In this document: in pieces, positions 1,231 through 15,934 of the stretch | Layout of the letters: the number at the start of each line of letters is the position of its first letter | Position numbering within the stretch: position 1 is the first letter of the stretch | Virus record (IMG/VR): IMGVR_UViG_2529292919_000020 | DNA from: a virus | Taxonomy: Duplodnaviria; Heunggongvirae; Uroviricota; Caudoviricetes | Reading direction: 5' to 3' (one strand) | DNA length: 15,934 bases | The notes under the pieces: model-generated | What the model saw: the letters and a program-made list of their open reading frames with translations, nothing else | Database searches by the model: none | What the model was told of the DNA's origin: nothing | Translations under genes and position numbers: made by a program

Positions 1231-1286
1231 TTTTTTTCGTGTTTTTTCAGTATGCGCATACTGGATAAGCACACAGATACAACGGC

Positions 1287-1322
1287 GAACAATGTGAAAC
1301 AACGTGGAACAACCACGAACAA
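1287..1322. promoter_or_regulatory. Four GAACAA units phased at exactly 10 bp (starts 1287, 1297, 1307, 1317): candidate binding array for an AlpA/Xis-type or integrase arm-binding protein
   Basis: Direct reading: cGAACAAtgtGAAACAAcgtgGAACAAccacGAACAAg. The reverse complement shares 18 identical nt with 7335..7352 and with 14335..14352. Position is between the int stop and the alpA start. Confidence 0.5.
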
Positions 1323-3421: not shown

Positions 3422-3709
3422 ATGAAAAATAAAAATTCTGGCTTTACTGCCAGCGGCCCCGCTCGGCCTGAAATCCGCCCCGGCGATATTTTCCGGGATA
3501 ACTATGGCGGCACGGTAACGATAAAAGGCGTGGCAGAACGGCGCATCACTTACCGCCGTGATGGCTACGAATATGACTGCGTGATGCCTGTTTATCAGTT
3601 CCGGCGTGATTTCACGCTGGTGGGCCATCGTAAAGCCGTAAATCAGAAACGTGCAGCAAGTCATATCCGCAAAATTCGTGAAATGCTGGTCGCAGGGGGT
3701 AAAAAATGA
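3422..3709 (+). CDS. Hypothetical basic protein (95 aa), translationally coupled to the replication initiator
   Basis: ORF-track ORF. Its stop overlaps the start of the downstream gene in an ATGA arrangement (3706..3709). Confidence 0.55.
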   Translation: MKNKNSGFTASGPARPEIRPGDIFRDNYGGTVTIKGVAERRITYRRDGYEYDCVMPVYQFRRDFTLVGHRKAVNQKRAASHIRKIREMLVAGGKK

Positions 3710-5520
3710 AACTGGCACCGAACGTAAAACAGCAGTTACGCGGCATAAAACACAAAGAAACAGAAGTCATTATTTTTGCGGGTAGTGATGCCTGGTCACA
3801 CGCAAAACAATGGCAGGAACATGACGCGCGTATGGCCGGAGATAATGAGCCTCCTGTGTGGCTTGGGGAGCAGCAGTTATCCGAACTGGATAAGCTGCAA
3901 ATTGTGCCGGAAGGCAGAAAATCCGTGCGCATATTCAGGGCCGGATATCTTGCGCCAGTAATGATAAAGGCGATTGGTCAGAAGCTGGCGGCGGCAGGCG
4001 TACAGGATGCAAATTTTTATCCTGAGGGTATGCACGGCCAGGAGGTGCAGAACTGGCGCGAATATCTGGCCCGTGAGCGCCAGAATCTTTCTGATGGTCT
4101 GGTGATTCAGCTTCCTGTTAAGAAAAAAACAGAAGACAGCGCCGCACCACTGGCGCTTAACCAGATGGGAGCAAGCCAGCGCGGCGAAGTTCTCCTGGCA
4201 CATTATGGCGGTGAACTGGCGATTCATGCCGACTCTGACACTGTTCACCATTACAACGGCGTTGTATGGGAGCCGATTCAGGATAAAGAGTTACAGCGTG
4301 CTATGGCGCAGATTTTCATTGATGCGGAGATCAGCTATTCGCAGAACGCCATTAAATCGGCGGTCGATACCATGAAGTTAAGTTTGCCTGTAATGGGGAA
4401 TACAGCCCGTAACCTGATTGGATTCAGTAACGGGGTATTTGATACCAGAACAGGTAATTTTCGGGAGCATAACAAAAACGACTGGTTGTTAATTGCCAGT
4501 GAATTACCTTTCAGCCCACCAGCAGAGGGGGAAACGCTGGCAACACATGCGCCGAATTTCTGGAAGTGGTTACGCCGCTCGGTGGCAGAGAATGACCGCA
4601 AGACGGATCGCGTGCTGGCTGCATTATTCATGGTGCTGGCGAACCGGTACGACTGGCAGTTATTCATTGAGGTAACAGGTCCAGGGGGAAGTGGTAAAAG
4701 CGTGATGGCGGAGATTTGCACCATGCTGGCGGGTAAGGCCAACACAGTATCGGCAAGCATGAAGGCGCTGGAAGATGCAAGGGAACGCGCGTTAGTGGTT
4801 GGCTTTTCGCTGATTATCATGCCGGATATGACCCGCTACGCTGGTGATGGCGCAGGAATTAAGGCCATTACAGGCGGTGACAAGGTGGCAATCGACCCGA
4901 AGCATAAAGCCCCCTACTCAACACGCATTCAGGCGGTCGTGCTGGCGGTGAACAATAACGCCATGTCATTCAGTGACCGCAGCGGGGGGATCTCACGTCG
5001 TCGGGTGATATTCAATTTTTCGGAGGTTGTACCGGAGAACGAGCGCGACCCCATGCTGGCAGAAAAAATAGAAGGAGAGCTGGCGGTTGTGATTCGCCAT
5101 CTGCTTACTCGTTTTTCTGACCAGGACGAAGCTAAACGCCTGCTGTATGAGCAGCAGAAATCAGAAGAAGCTCTGGTGATAAAACGCGAGGGCGATTCGC
5201 TGGTGGACTTCTGTGGCTATCTCATGTCGTCGGTAATGTGTGATGGTCTGTTAGTGGGTAATGCCGAAATTATTCCGTTCAGTCCGCGCAGGTATCTTTA
5301 TCACGCCTATCTGGCATATATGAGGGCACACGGATTCGGTAAACCTGTAACACTGACGCGCTTCGGTAAAGATATGCCGGGGGCAATGGCGGAATATGGC
5401 AGGGAGTATATAAAACGGAAAACGAAGCACGGTTTGCGTTCAAATGTGACACTGACAGAGGATTCAGAAGACTGGATGCCATCATGTGCATCGGTCACAA
5501 ATGACGACAGCAAAAATTAA
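3706..5520 (+). CDS. Replication initiator (pri-rep) with P4-alpha-like C-terminal SF3 helicase / origin-binding region; N-terminal ~200 aa of unassigned family
   Basis: 604-aa ORF with strong SD (CAGGGGG). Walker A GPGGSGKS, followed by a region resembling the phage/plasmid primase P4-family C-terminal (D5-like) helicase domain. Sits immediately upstream of an iteron array. Confidence 0.85.
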   Translation: MKLAPNVKQQLRGIKHKETEVIIFAGSDAWSHAKQWQEHDARMAGDNEPPVWLGEQQLSELDKLQIVPEGRKSVRIFRAGYLAPVMIKAIGQKLAAAGVQDANFYPEGMHGQEVQNWREYLARERQNLSDGLVIQLPVKKKTEDSAAPLALNQMGASQRGEVLLAHYGGELAIHADSDTVHHYNGVVWEPIQDKELQRAMAQIFIDAEISYSQNAIKSAVDTMKLSLPVMGNTARNLIGFSNGVFDTRTGNFREHNKNDWLLIASELPFSPPAEGETLATHAPNFWKWLRRSVAENDRKTDRVLAALFMVLANRYDWQLFIEVTGPGGSGKSVMAEICTMLAGKANTVSASMKALEDARERALVVGFSLIIMPDMTRYAGDGAGIKAITGGDKVAIDPKHKAPYSTRIQAVVLAVNNNAMSFSDRSGGISRRRVIFNFSEVVPENERDPMLAEKIEGELAVVIRHLLTRFSDQDEAKRLLYEQQKSEEALVIKREGDSLVDFCGYLMSSVMCDGLLVGNAEIIPFSPRRYLYHAYLAYMRAHGFGKPVTLTRFGKDMPGAMAEYGREYIKRKTKHGLRSNVTLTEDSEDWMPSCASVTNDDSKN

Positions 5521-5530
5521 ACTTATGGAA

Positions 5531-5760
5531 TAACTGTTCACCACTGTTCACCCTGTGATAAATATCTTTTATATCAGTACATTATAGGGTGAACAGTTAT
5601 TTGTGAACTGTTCACCAAACTATTCACTGTTCACCTTTTTGATTATTTATTGAGCTTTAAGGGTGAACAGTGGTGAACAGTTGGTGAATAGTTTTTGTGA
5701 AACTGTTCACCCCTTAACATTATGAATAAAAAGGGAAAATCTCAAAAGGTGAACAGGTGA
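5531..5760. repeat. Replication origin iterons: about ten copies of CTGTTCACC / GGTGAACAG in both orientations, with an adjacent AT-rich tract
   Basis: Forward copies start at 5534, 5545, 5608, 5627, 5703. Inverted copies start at 5588, 5662, 5672, 5748, plus a degenerate GGTGAATAG at 5683. Neighbouring copies are 10-11 bp apart. AT-rich AAAAATTTTATTTTATT at about 5774..5790. The core TGTTCACC is the octamer I recall as the alpha-binding iteron of P4 ori1/crr. Confidence 0.8.
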
Positions 5761-6512: not shown

Positions 6513-7043
6513 ATGACAACGCTGACCATTAACCGGAAGCCGAAAGGCATTTACGGCACGCCGCAGAAAACGACGCAGGCGGCGCAAGAGCAGGATAAAA
6601 CCACATCGGCGCATAAAGTGATACCCGGCAATCAGAACGCACAGCAGAAGCCCACAGGGGCGACACCGTGGCAGCATATGACCAAAAGGCAGCGCAAAAA
6701 CCGCCGACGCGTTAACCGCCTCACTGAGATGTGGCCTGACTTATTCAGCCATAAAGCACCGAAGCCGCTTAAGGTGGGGATATTCGACGACCTGATGCAG
6801 GATATCGCCGTCAGGGGGCTGGCATTCGGGCCGGGGGTATTACGTGCGACGCTGGCATCCTATGCGCAGTCTCCGCGCTATTACCGCGCCCTGATAGCTG
6901 GTGGCGCACGTTACGACCTGAAAGGCCAGCCATGTGGGGAAGTGACACCACAGGAACAGCAGGAGGCAGAAACACGGCTGATGGTGCTGAATGAGAAGCA
7001 CAAGCGCCAGCGCCGGGCAGCAAAGGGGGATACATGCCAGTGA
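6513..7043 (+). CDS. ProQ/FinO-domain RNA-binding protein
   Basis: 176 aa with strong SD (GGGGAAGG). ...WPDLFSHKAPKPLKVGIFDDLMQDIA...LRATLASYAQSPRYYRALIAGGARYDLKGQPCGEVTPQEQQEA matches the ProQ N-terminal / FinO fold signature (PLKIGIF-DL ... LR-AL--Y--S-RY ... R-DL-G-PCGE). Confidence 0.8.
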   Translation: MTTLTINRKPKGIYGTPQKTTQAAQEQDKTTSAHKVIPGNQNAQQKPTGATPWQHMTKRQRKNRRRVNRLTEMWPDLFSHKAPKPLKVGIFDDLMQDIAVRGLAFGPGVLRATLASYAQSPRYYRALIAGGARYDLKGQPCGEVTPQEQQEAETRLMVLNEKHKRQRRAAKGDTCQ

Positions 7044-7282: not shown

Positions 7283-7290
7283 AGCGATAA

Positions 7291-7319
7291 AGGCCCGGAT
7301 TTTTTCCGGGCCTTTTTTC
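7291..7319 (+). terminator. Rho-independent terminator closing the replication/accessory operon
   Basis: Stem GGCCCGGA (7292..7299) pairing with TCCGGGCC (7305..7312), followed by TTTTTT (7313..7318). Confidence 0.7.
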
Positions 7320-7336: not shown

Positions 7337-7362
7337 TGTTCGTGGTTGTTCCAGGTTGTTCG
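7337..7362. promoter_or_regulatory. Three TTGTTC units phased at exactly 10 bp (starts 7337, 7347, 7357) upstream of the capsid operon: candidate activator-binding site for late/packaging gene expression
   Basis: Direct reading: tTTGTTCgtggTTGTTCcaggTTGTTCgg. An 18-nt exact match to the reverse complement of 1304..1321. Lies just after the terminator and about 195 bp upstream of the major capsid gene start. Confidence 0.5.
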
Positions 7363-11262: not shown

Positions 11263-11550
11263 ACAGGAGCAAAACAGGCTGATACGTGGGTTGATAAGGC
11301 AGCGTGACACATGGAAGACACAGGAGACAGGGCACAAAGCCAACAGGACAGGGCGCACAAAACGCACCACAGCGAAGTGATTAACCGACCGTGACCGCGA
11401 GGTCATGGAATGTTTTCGCAATCGCTGGTGAGGCCGTCAGAGGGGGTGGGGGTGGTTTTCAGGACGAAACCGCCCCTGCCGGACACCGACCGCCTCCTCA
11501 AATTTTTGTGCACGGGAATTTTTTTGAAAATAATTGGGCGAAAAAAGAAC

Positions 11551-13557: not shown

Positions 13558-13842
13558 GTGAGCGAAACCGAACTACTAAAAATAATCCGCCGCATTACCG
13601 GAATCAGCCAGGAAGCAGGCAAACAGGAGGCCACGCAGCCGGACAGCGTGATAGCCGAAAATTACGCGCGTGTGGTGGCTGAGGTGATGCGCCGTGATGG
13701 TATTGAGCTTAACGGCGTGGATATGCGCTACATACGGATCAGAGTTCTGGAGTTGTTGTCATATCGTCGCCGCGTGGAGATGTACCAGGAGAAAGAAAAA
13801 ATTACTTACCACTGGAAGAAGCCGGAGCGGTTGCGGCGGTAA
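13558..13842 (+). CDS. Hypothetical protein (94 aa) downstream of terL; last ORF of the element
   Basis: ORF-track ORF with GTG start and weak RBS. Charged, helical-looking sequence with no recognisable motif. Its stop codon lies inside the first copy of a 23-nt direct repeat. Confidence 0.4.
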   Translation: MSETELLKIIRRITGISQEAGKQEATQPDSVIAENYARVVAEVMRRDGIELNGVDMRYIRIRVLELLSYRRRVEMYQEKEKITYHWKKPERLRR

Positions 13843-14003
13843 CTGGTTGATATTCCCGACGGTCCAAAAATGGGTTGGCTACACCCCTCACAACTACGAC
13901 ATTTTCGCAGTTTAATTAATGGTCAGCTTAATCGCTAACCCGCTGATATTTTCGGAAACCTCAATTTGAGGAAGTCGGCGCGGTAACTGTTTGATATTCC
14001 CGA
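13837..14003. repeat. 23-nt direct repeat CGGTAACTG(G/T)TTGATATTCCCGA (13837..13859 and 13981..14003, 1 mismatch), part of a diverged ~140-bp tandem duplication
   Basis: Direct reading. A second shared block CTAACCCG(C/T)TGAT occurs at about 13936 and 14069. Confidence 0.5.
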
Positions 14004-14334
14004 TAACGCAAAATTGCGCTGGATGAATGAACATTATGTTACTTATGATTACGCAGATGATTAAGGCCTAACCCGTTGATTCTTCCACAATCCCCCATTG
14101 GGGGAGGCTGGGCGGCCTGCTGTGGGCTTTTCCACCATTGGTGGAAAGGTGCAGATCTGAATCATCATTACGGTGATCAAGGGTATGTAAAACCCACCAG
14201 CCTGATTGACATTTAACCGGAAAAAAAGCCAGGTAGCCCCGTTATGGGGATCCCCATATCGACATTAACGCCCCTCATGAATTGGCGTGCTTTCCCCTGG
14301 AAAGATGACCCGCCTGTATATTTCTTGTGTCTAT

Positions 14335-14391
14335 TTGTTCCACGTTGTTTCATACAGTGCACCGAACGGTGTAGTTAATGGTGTAGTTAAT
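14335..14391. repeat. Third copy of the phased TTGTTC motif (14335..14351, 2 units 10 bp apart) followed by a perfect tandem GGTGTAGTTAAT x2 (14368..14391)
   Basis: 14335..14352 (TTGTTCCACGTTGTTTCA) is an 18-nt exact match to the reverse complement of 1295..1312. The 12-bp tandem duplication was read directly. Confidence 0.45.
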
Positions 14392-14473
14392 TTGCGATTT
14401 TTGGTACTTTTTGTAGTGCAAATTATTTAATTAAATCAATGCCTTATCTTAATTTAGTGATAAAAGGACATAT

Positions 14474-15934
14474 TTATTCATCTTTCGGCGCAGAATGCTG
14501 GCGACCAAAAATCACCTCCATCCGCGCACCGCCCAGCATGCTCTCTCCGGCGACGATTTTACCCTCATATTGCTCGGTGATTTCGCGGGCTACGGCCAGC
14601 CCCACACCTTGCCCAGGGCGTAAAGTATCAACCCGTTGACCACGGTCGAAAATGACCTCTCGCTTGCTTAATGGAATACCGGGGCCATCATCCTCGACCA
14701 CAATATAGAGATGCTCGTCGGTTTGCCTTGCAGAAATTTCGACAAACTCGAGGCAATATTTACAGGCGTTATCCAGCACGTTGCCCATCACTTCGACAAA
14801 ATCATTCTGCTCACCAACAAAGCTGATTTCTGGCGAGATATCGAGATAGATATTGACCCCTTTGCGTTGATACACTTTGTTCAGCGCCGAGGTGAGATTG
14901 TCCAACAGTGGGGCGACCGGATGCAGCTCGCGGCTAAGCAATGTCCCGCCGCGCATACTGGCACGATGCAGGTAGTAGCCAATTTGCTGTGAAATGCGGC
15001 TGATTTGCTCCAGCATTACCGGCTCAGCATCACTGACGCTCATCTTCTCACTACGCAGAGAACGCAGCGTACTTTGCAGCACCGCCAGTGGTGTTTTCAG
15101 ACTATGGGTCAGGTCGGTGAGCGTCGTACGATATTTGTCGTAACGTTCGCGTTCACTTTTTAACAGTCGGTTCAGGTTTCGTACCAGACTGGTCAGTTCT
15201 CGCGTTGTGGCTGGATTGAGCAATTCACGGTTATGTTCTTCCAGTTCGCGGACTTCTTTTGCCAGGGCTTCGATGGGGCGTAAACTCCACCAGGCGGCGA
15301 CCCACAGCAGCGGGATCACTAACAGCAGATTGGCTGAGAGCACATAGATAAACCAGCTCCAGACCATATAGGAACTTTTTAGCTCCACCGGAATGGTATC
15401 CACCACCACAATGGTTAACTTTGGCATCCGCGATGTTGCCGGGTAGACGTTTACCGCCACCGAGTGGGTCATCTCCGCGTCGTCATCATCTTCCCGCACT
15501 TCCTGCAACTGTTGCTGTATCGAATGATCTCCACTCAGCAAGAGGCTGGTATCGTTAACATCCGCTTCAATTTCATGAAAACCATTCGATTTCAGCCAGT
15601 CAGGCTGGATCATCTTCATCAGCCAGGGCACGTCACGTTGCGCCCATAAAAGCTGCCCGTTCTCATCATAAATTAGTGTCATCGTGGGGCTTTGCTTGTC
15701 GATATTTTCGGGTAACTCGACATGCAACTTATTGTTTTCCCACTTCGCAAGGGTATAGAACAGATTGCTCTCGCCACGTAACAGCCGAAACGTGGTTTTA
15801 TCGAAACTGACGCTATAACCGATCAGCGCAACCATTCCGTAGGCAAGCGAAAGCACCAATACTACTGCTGCCGTTGCTAACAGAAAACGTACCCGCAGCG
15901 AGAGCGGGAAAAAAAGATGCAGTAATTTTTTCAT
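14474..15934 (-). CDS. phoQ: Sensor histidine kinase PhoQ (PhoP/PhoQ two-component system)
   Basis: 486-aa ORF. From memory the sequence is near-identical to E. coli PhoQ ([76 protein letters not shown]... ending ...[10 protein letters not shown]). Periplasmic acidic patch EDDDDAE, HAMP, phosphoacceptor His in [12 protein letters not shown], and ATPase G-boxes. The start codon is at the window edge. Confidence 0.95.

Follow-up and report, generated by a model that had tools for sequence, protein, structure and literature searches.

The cluster of palindromes at positions 14092-14304 of the IMG/VR virus record IMGVR_UViG_2529292919_000020 was analyzed in the context of the whole stretch of 15,934 nucleotides (hereafter, the window), which corresponds to a capsid-forming phage-inducible chromosomal island (cf-PICI) inserted between roxA and phoQ. 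The first two palindromes form the dyads of the fourth and fifth members of a series of five tandem cassettes (13837-14150), which are homologous, antisense to the island genes, to a segment of about 16 codons of the Rha/Roi/Ant regulatory genes of other phages, and within those genes the dyad is under selection at the nucleic-acid level, being kept by synonymous-site covariation. Palindromes 1 and 2 are captured, multiplied and non-coding dyads of the Roi/Rha type, and on balance the comparison of these sequences leans towards the idea that they represent duplex-DNA sites for phage Roi/Rha-type proteins together with the integration host factor (IHF). The cluster as a whole seems, with the same slight preponderance, to be composed of three unrelated kinds of thing, i.e., of duplex-DNA dyads rather than of an RNA element.

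The palindrome cluster

An earlier note on this DNA had reported four palindromes, and all of them were found where it had placed them: CCCCCATTGGGGG (14092-14104), TTTCCACCATTGGTGGAAA (14129-14147), CCCCGTTATGGGGATCCCC (14237-14255) and CTTTCCCCTGGAAAG (14290-14304). The cluster is denser than expected: four perfect palindromes with arms of at least 6 nt are embedded in 213 nt, against 0.43 expected on the basis of dinucleotide shuffles (P = 0.0025), and two with arms of at least 8 nt are present in the same 213 nt, against 0.04 expected (P = 0.0005). No other segment of 213 nt in the 15.9-kb sequence reaches a count of four.

The palindromes had been described as hairpins with 3-nt loops; however, palindromes 1-3 are dyads symmetric up to their centre and not stems with a free loop. 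The arms of palindrome 1 are 7 nt long (TCCCCCA-T-TGGGGGA), those of palindrome 2 are 9 nt long, and those of palindrome 3 (TATGGGGA and TCCCCATA) are 8 nt long and extend into a 22-bp near-palindrome. The hairpin CCCC-GTTAT-GGGG is indeed present, but it is an incidental sub-hairpin that is absent in several lineages. The remaining descriptive statements of the note were borne out: the four stems lack a downstream T-run in both strands, no terminator-like site exists in the region, and the cluster is located in a non-coding right end of about 630 bp, next to the att core GGACATATTTAT (14466-14477).

Tandem cassettes in the non-coding right end

Upstream of palindrome 1, and including it, the right end is organized in units spaced by 48 nt or multiples of it (Table 1). 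Each unit contains the motif TAACnnnYTGATW (TAACNNNYTGATW; four occurrences in the window against 0.07 expected), which corresponds to the IHF consensus WATCAANNNNTTR read in reverse (five occurrences against 0.65 expected), and 8-11 nt past the motif a short dyad, whose sequence differs from unit to unit (CCAAAAATGG, CCTCAATTTGAGG, CGCAAAATTGCG, TCCCCCATTGGGGGA). The IHF consensus is thus found near the dyad in M1-M4, and it is lacking both in the palindrome-2 cassette (SSU5 type) and in the gene from which that cassette derives. The start of M1 is the stop codon of the last open reading frame (ORF), and its dyad is CCCAAAAATGGG in other lineages; M3 is a paralogue of M2 and has no close phage match.

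The number of units per island ranges from 4 to 7, the O157 islands harboring seven. The 34 distinct cassettes of E. coli-type islands contain 20 different dyads; perfect arms of at least 5 nt are present in 71% of these cassettes, against 10% in chimeras of different cassettes. Some island dyads are longer than those of any source gene, as in the case of the 12-bp arms of CGACCTCCTCAATTTGAGGAGGTCG. The region is a mosaic, the length of which varies from about 530 to 1100 bp between lineages; palindrome 1 exists in some lineages only, and the position of palindrome 2 is kept, with one compensatory change (A-T to C-G) plus several mismatched variants. No further copies of palindromes 1, 2 and 3 were found in the island. 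As for small protein genes, the ORFs lying over the array are not conserved across lineages.

Origin of the cassettes in phage regulatory genes

The region 13843-14335 was used as a blastn query against 50,697 phage records (2.3 Gb), and matches were retrieved only within roi/ant/Rha coding sequences, on the opposite strand. Positions 13944-13978 match the roi gene of HK620, H-19B and HK75 (91% identity, E 1e-3); positions 14058-14111, which include palindrome 1, match the roi gene of JLK-2012, Lahn2 and Stx1a phages (83-88%, E 6e-6); positions 14107-14150, which include palindrome 2, match the antirepressor/Rha-family gene of SSU5 (88.6%, E 6e-6), in agreement with the fact that SSU5-like phage-plasmids also match them. 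The minus strand of M2 reads RLPQIEVSENISGL (91% identity over 35 nt to the three roi genes listed first), that of M4 reads PPMGDCGRINGLGLNH (83-88% to the roi genes of the second group), and that of M5 reads ICTFPPMVEKPTAGRPAS (83% identity to residues 21-38 of the SSU5 antirepressor).

The tblastn search revealed that the minus strand represents only Roi residues from about 42 to 59 (21-38 of SSU5 Ant), and that it does so repeatedly (RLPQIEVSENISGLAIKL, PPMGDCGRINGLGLNH, ICTFPPMVEKPTAGRPAS), with an identity of 75-83% over 16-18 amino acids. The segment represented is the one encoding ...PP(M/L)xE.....G (also PQIE): on the minus strand, palindrome 1 is CCC CCA ATG GGG G (PPMG) and palindrome 2 is TTT CCA CCA ATG GTG GAA A (FPPMVE). 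In one lineage, the SSU5-type fragment is longer and extends up to Ant residue 62 (47% over 42 amino acids).

The architecture of the cassettes is also that of the source genes. In the roi gene of HK620 the IHF consensus TAAGTTATTGATT is followed, after 10 nt, by CCTCAATTTGAGG; in that of JLK-2012 the consensus TAACCCATTGATT is followed, after 9 nt, by ATCCTCAATTTGAGGAT; in that of HK022 the order is CTGCATTGCAG, 11 nt, AATCAATGATTTA. The dyad of the SSU5 gene is CTTTTCCACCATTGGTGGAAAAG. The Roi protein of HK620 is composed of a Phage_pRha and an ANT/KilAC domain, and no solved homologue of the Rha domain was found by sequence. No intact roi/rha ORF was met around the island dyads, where only fragments are present and no ORF is kept across lineages; therefore, the array is derived from the Roi/Rha dyad family without being a strict member of it. 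The satellite itself does not encode a Roi/Rha protein.

Selection on the dyad within phage genes

The 15-mer of palindrome 1, TCCCCCAATGGGGGA, was retrieved in 119 IMG/VR stretches, 50 of which possess a Roi homologue; in 36 cases it lies at nucleotides 125-164 of that gene. A sample of IMG/VR Rha/Roi genes was picked on the basis of the unrelated peptides KRDS[IY][IV]VV and PEFTARLV. In this sample, a perfect dyad with arms of at least 5 nt spans the PP(M/L)x codons in 32 of the 37 distinct genes, and the mean arm is 6.2 nt, against about 2.9 under synonymous resampling.

The dyad covaries with the allele, PPMG being encoded by CCCCCAATGGGGG, PPMA by CCGCCAATGGCGG, PPMV by CCACCAATGGTGG and PALQ by CCTGCGTTGCAGG. 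In 30 of 34 genes, the third base of the first proline codon is complementary to the base at the second position of codon 4, three Watson-Crick combinations being represented. The second proline codon is CCA in 29 of the 34, against a background of 21% (P 2e-15); therefore, even the innermost position, where a hairpin would allow no pairing, is symmetric. Moreover, the arms of the HK022-type dyad are only 5 bp long, and as a hairpin they would form stems of only 4 bp. On account of this innermost symmetry and of these short arms, a duplex-DNA site for a dimer is favoured over an RNA stem. The PP(M/L)(G/A/V)E segment is probably encoded across the operator of the gene itself, as these codon patterns suggest. 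An intragenic Rha/Roi dyad kept by synonymous-site covariation was not met in the literature surveyed.

Of the three options that the earlier note had left side by side (small structured RNA, protein recognition sites, REP-like host repeats), the second fits best, even though in a form different from the one imagined: palindromes 1 and 2 are homologous to the roi/rha/ant intragenic dyad, their innermost position is symmetric, and the IHF consensus stands beside the dyad in lambdoid alleles. The other two are considered below.

Explanations at the RNA level and host repeats

The main rival explanation, which we nevertheless consider unlikely, places the function of the array at the RNA level. 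According to it, the cassettes would be transcribed as the 3' untranslated region (UTR) of the late operon (capsid...TerL-ORF94), and their antisense segments or hairpins would pair with the roi/ant mRNAs of other phages, possibly with the aid of the ProQ/FinO protein of the island (6513-7043). It would agree with this that all cassettes are antisense to roi and sense to the island genes, that the stop codon of the last ORF marks the beginning of the array and no convincing terminator separates the two, that stretches of 35-54 nt are 83-91% complementary to natural roi/ant alleles, and that the dyads can be folded as hairpins in either strand. However, the innermost base-pair symmetry is impossible in a hairpin, the IHF consensus, which is conserved, belongs to the DNA level, HK022-type dyads would yield stems of only 4 bp, the hairpins do not possess the 3' U-tail usually needed by FinO-domain proteins, and for M1 and M3 no target could be detected in phages.

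The searches for RNA signals also gave no support to a small structured RNA. Rfam covariance models gave no match to the whole window at gathering thresholds, and at E<=10 the segment 13700-14520 gave a single spurious match (tsr1), outside the cluster. The folding energy of 14080-14420 showed no excess (z = -1.15 on the plus strand and -0.10 on the minus strand). The promoter/terminator scan of the region returned one weak promoter-like match, below shuffle expectation, and zero terminators. No strand signal emerged from the mismatches either, G.T and A.C being 7 and 4, respectively, in the imperfect palindromes of the island, where the cases are few, and G.U-type and A.C being 2 and 2 in the phage genes. 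Lastly, the full pairing of palindrome 4 is limited to a single lineage. Transcripts reading through the array might nonetheless act as RNA. Esr41, considered together with other known O157 island small RNAs, resides in SpLE1/OI-43 and not in this island.

The third option, that of REP/BIME-like (repetitive extragenic palindromic/bacterial interspersed mosaic element) host repeats, was considered together with that of intrinsic terminators; the presence of short GC-rich intergenic palindromes beside a convergent host gene is in their favour. Both can be regarded as refuted, their residual probability being negligible. The median number of places per genome at which the palindrome sequences are found is one (maximum 4-5), always in islands of this family, which excludes REP-like repeats, and they show no REP consensus; the lack of a T-run after any stem, on either strand, speaks against terminators. 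The right end is matched in 1178 of 5426 complete E. coli genomes, O157 included. The reconstructed empty roxA-phoQ site is found with at least 80% query coverage in 4823 of the 5426, and among the matches listed it is full-length with 100% identity; the region is missing from these island-free genomes and, hence, it is not a host repeat. Furthermore, the same right end is shared by islands inserted at the phoQ, smrA, allC, mdtJ-side and clpS sites, so it is a property of the element and not of the host.

Proposed role of the array

The identity of the proteins binding the array, and the effect of their binding, can be proposed as follows. The satellite has copied dyad cassettes out of the roi/rha/ant regulator genes of other phages, and several allelic dyad types (PQIE, PPMG, PPMV and others) are kept side by side in the array. 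The latter would then bind, jointly with host IHF, the Roi/Rha/Ant-type regulators of co-resident or infecting phages; it would either titrate them, as a decoy of multiple specificity, or carry a roadblock of bound proteins that separates the late operon from attP/int. A more specific and rather doubtful version, to be taken as tentative, is that of an "operator sponge", in which decoy sites (IHF plus dyad) from different lambdoid phages and phage-plasmids would, after amplification, titrate or trap these regulators and thereby steer how phages that reside in the same cell, or compete with the island, decide on lysis or induction. Were this the case, a change of the residue at position four of PP(M/L)x (G, A or V) would go along with a change of base pair +/-4 in the operator.

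The Roi protein of HK022 reportedly binds inside roi, with IHF adjacent to it and stabilising the binding. The IHF-linked rha genes of P22 and phi80 are related cases.

A number of points weigh against the interpretation of palindromes 1 and 2 as sites for Roi/Rha-type proteins. For the binding of Roi within roi beside an IHF site, reportedly shown by Clerget & Boccard 1996, the literature search found no independent statement of the position of Roi binding. About 30% of the cassettes have degenerate dyads (arms of 4 nt or less), and the majority of the other lineages have a single mismatch in palindrome 2, both of which suggest a relaxed constraint. Related cf-PICIs, such as vB_KppS-Ant, have no array, which is therefore accessory. 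All cassettes share one orientation, antisense to roi, inside a possible 3' UTR, as would equally be expected of an antisense RNA, and a covariation that preserves complementarity is equally a mark of an RNA or DNA hairpin. In addition, HK106, the published helper of EcCIEDL933, does not possess a roi/rha/ant homologue in its regulatory half (24000-41468, early and late), so that the array is not required for induction or mobilisation by that helper. The idea that Roi is a helper signal, which was also considered, is weakened by this lack of roi in HK106.

Some of these observations might also be accounted for by neutral debris or stuffer DNA. The cassettes would then be decaying roi/ant fragments left by prophage recombination and serving as filler for a packageable length, with palindromes inherited from the source genes. 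The SSU5-type fragment reaching Ant residue 62 in one lineage might point to a larger capture followed by decay; the mosaic nature and variable length (about 530 to 1100 bp) of the region, the degenerate dyads (about 30%) and the existence of cf-PICIs that do without the region point in the same direction. On the other hand, the same dyad segment of about 16 codons is the only one represented, in 4-7 tandem copies and with different alleles; the IHF motif and its spacing have been retained while the reading frames have been destroyed; the arms covary inside cassettes (71% against 10% in chimeras); and some dyads, e.g., the one with 12-bp arms mentioned above, exceed those of any source gene. 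Debris is thus held to be distinctly unlikely, even a little more so than an action at the RNA level.

Palindromes 3 and 4 and the attachment region

The coordinates of the cassettes and of the other features of the right end are reported in Table 1.

Table 1. Cassettes, dyads and recombination features of the right end of the island
Feature	Position	Strand	Elements and remarks
Cassette M1	13837-13884	-	IHF-consensus motif TAACTGGTTGATA (13840-13852, reverse of WATCAANNNNTTR); weak dyad CCAAAAATGG (13864-13873)
Cassette M2	13933-13980	-	near-IHF motif TAACCCGCTGATA (13936-13948), 10 nt, dyad CCTCAATTTGAGG (13959-13971)
Cassette M3	13981-14028	-	IHF consensus TAACTGTTTGATA (13984-13996), 10 nt, dyad CGCAAAATTGCG (14007-14018)
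Cassette M4	14066-14105	-	IHF consensus TAACCCGTTGATT (14069-14081), 9 nt, dyad TCCCCCATTGGGGGA (14091-14105), corresponding to palindrome 1
Cassette M5	14106-14150	-	dyad TTTCCACCATTGGTGGAAA (14129-14147), corresponding to palindrome 2; no IHF motif
22-bp near-perfect dyad, CGTTATGGGGA-TCCCCATATCG	14240-14261		central GATC; contains palindrome 3
Palindrome 4, CTTTCCCCTGGAAAG	14290-14304		perfect in this lineage only; inside a conserved block
17-nt motif, TTGTTCCACGTTGTTTC	14335-14351	+	outside the palindrome cluster; probable AlpA/RDF-type regulator site
Two tandem arm-type integrase sites, GGTGTAGTTAAT x2	14368-14391	+	common to the left arm
Att-proximal IHF consensus, AATCAATGCCTTA	14434-14446	+	consensus match
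Att core (attR), GGACATATTTAT	14466-14477		overlaps the phoQ stop codon

When 28 distinct right ends of islands are compared, the core of palindrome 3, TGGGGATCCCCA, hardly varies; therefore, it is the sequence that is conserved, and its pairing is not informed by the alignment. The only match of the 22-bp dyad outside the islands is a 23-nt exact identity, CCGTTATGGGGATCCCCATATCG (14239-14261), with a site located between genes of Escherichia phage B2, a lytic Dhillonvirus (2501-2523 of the extracted stretch). Since its E value is 0.07, chance is possible, and the identity may reflect either chance or a protein site shared with this phage. The 22-bp dyad probably binds a putative dimeric protein, and it may be part of the machinery by which the att-proximal block takes part in recombination or regulation.

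In most relatives, palindrome 4 is replaced by CTTCCCCCTGGAAAG, and the stretch is deleted in some lineages. In the alignment of the 28 right ends, the fourth pair is Watson-Crick in 2 of 23 sequences and broken in the other 21; palindrome 4 is, from this comparison, a lineage-specific chance palindrome.

The att arm comprises the last 140 bp or so before phoQ and includes the regulator motif, the two arm-type sites and an IHF consensus. The presence of these recombination features just downstream of the cluster (14335-14351, 14368-14391, 14434-14446, and the core at 14466-14477), as well as the location of palindromes 3 and 4 in a block (14186-14400) whose conservation includes these features, might suggest that the palindromes are attP/attR accessory sites for the integrase, an AlpA-type directionality factor, IHF or Fis. 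For the cluster as a whole this is very improbable: palindromes 1 and 2 are 320-385 bp away from the core and are homologous to phage regulator genes, none of the four palindromes has a second copy in the island, the left arm included, and palindrome 4 is not conserved. An att accessory role is possible for palindrome 3.

The identical 26-mer CGGTGTAGTTAATGGTGTAGTTAATT is present in both att arms, its left copy being located just upstream of int (908-933 of the extracted left-arm stretch). The same layout of arm sites, with TGTATAAACA repeats, was observed in vB_KppS-Ant. Further copies of the 17-nt motif TTGTTCCACGTTGTTTC are found at 1296-1312 (minus strand), 1276-1292 (minus strand) and 7346-7362 (plus strand), as well as in the left att arm (about 880-905 of the extracted left-arm stretch). 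Besides the two att arms, the motif thus occupies a place close to alpA, downstream of int, and another ahead of the capsid operon, right after the terminator at 7289-7315. It is likely the binding site of one AlpA/recombination directionality factor (RDF)-type regulator, which would couple excision with the control of the late operon.

Other features of the island

The island encodes a P4-type integrase with an arm-binding domain, AlpA, a D5/P4-alpha-like primase, SSB and a ProQ/FinO protein, followed in its late part by an HK97-type capsid, a protease, a portal, a connector, an HNH protein, TerS (P27 family), TerL and a 94-aa ORF; this gene set is the same as that published for cf-PICIs. The gene of the ProQ/FinO-domain protein is located between those of SSB and of the capsid operon. 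The last ORF, ORF94 (13558-13842), matches only PHROG families of unknown function.

The replication origin is composed of nine exact P4-type iterons TGTTCACC in both orientations (5535-5755), immediately after the primase gene (3706-5520); the whole window contains 11 such iterons, against 0.57 expected. The possibility that the palindrome region is a replication origin was ruled out, the origin lying at 5535-5755 and no iteron being present at the right end.

The interval between the HNH/small ORF and terS contains a G-rich site, GGGGGTGGGGGTGGTTTTCAGGAC (11442-11465). In vB_KppS-Ant (LR881103), a packaged cf-PICI relative with a linear GenBank record, the homologous ...GGTTTTCAGGAC is the end of the record, the start of which lies 22 nt ahead of terS. 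On the basis of this correspondence, the G-rich site upstream of terS is the most probable cos, and a cos site within the palindrome region is unlikely. The position of cos has not been mapped in the cf-PICI papers, and the ends of the IMG/VR contigs, mostly prophage predictions from isolate genomes, are uninformative in this respect.

Some island lineages possess a clear intrinsic terminator, GGATGACGTGGCCAACGTCATTTTTT, inside the right-end region (e.g., at 1388-1410 of one extracted right end), which is absent in the lineage of the window. In the cf-PICIs of Xenorhabdus, TAACnnnTTGAT-hairpin-ATCAAnnnnGTTA units are located right after terL, and hairpins with GGAAATC loops are also present. 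In the same elements, a segment between two ATGGTCAAAATCTTGACCAT-type palindromes appears inverted between two species (about 5260-5665 and 2270-2790 of the extracted stretches), which suggests that it might be invertible.

Comparison with known systems

The closest known case is the reported intragenic Roi site of the roi gene of HK022, with an IHF site adjacent to it. The cassettes are homologous to the roi/ant segment bearing the dyad, which is followed by WATCAANNNNTTR 9-11 nt further on, and the HK022-type dyad CTGCATTGCAG is itself present in one island lineage. Unlike the HK022 site, those of the satellite lie outside any roi gene, in non-coding DNA, in 4-7 tandem copies and with several allelic types per array. 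The intragenic Rha/Roi dyad provides a concrete candidate for the long-known and unexplained IHF-dependent behaviour of roi and rha.

The sopC site of F, parS of P1, cosB and attP of lambda, and datA of E. coli, which serve to assemble nucleoprotein complexes or to titrate proteins, share with the array the tandem arrangement of regular units (48 nt and multiples), a dyad and/or an IHF site, and the location in non-coding mobile DNA. In those systems, however, one sequence is recognized by one cognate protein of the same replicon, whereas here the dyads vary and their presumed ligands would come from other phages; moreover, both the origin and the probable cos site of the island (5535-5755 and about 11442-11465, respectively) are located away from the array.

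The resemblance to FinP/FinO consists in a FinO-domain protein encoded in cis and in a region complementary to the mRNAs of another element, with possible stem-loops; the island array differs in having no promoter-terminator unit, 3' U-tail or Rfam match. Similarly, REP/BIME elements with an IHF site (RIP/RIB) associate short intergenic palindromes with an IHF consensus, but the island palindromes occur about once per genome, only in the island family, and their sequence is unrelated to the REP consensus.

cf-PICIs are widespread, and their non-coding right end is undescribed in the literature surveyed. If the array binds Roi/Rha/Ant regulators, it would represent a way in which a satellite interferes with, or listens to, Stx-type and other lambdoid phages by means of DNA sites and without a protein of its own. 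Operator and IHF sites are of a known kind; the new aspect is their capture and arraying by a satellite.

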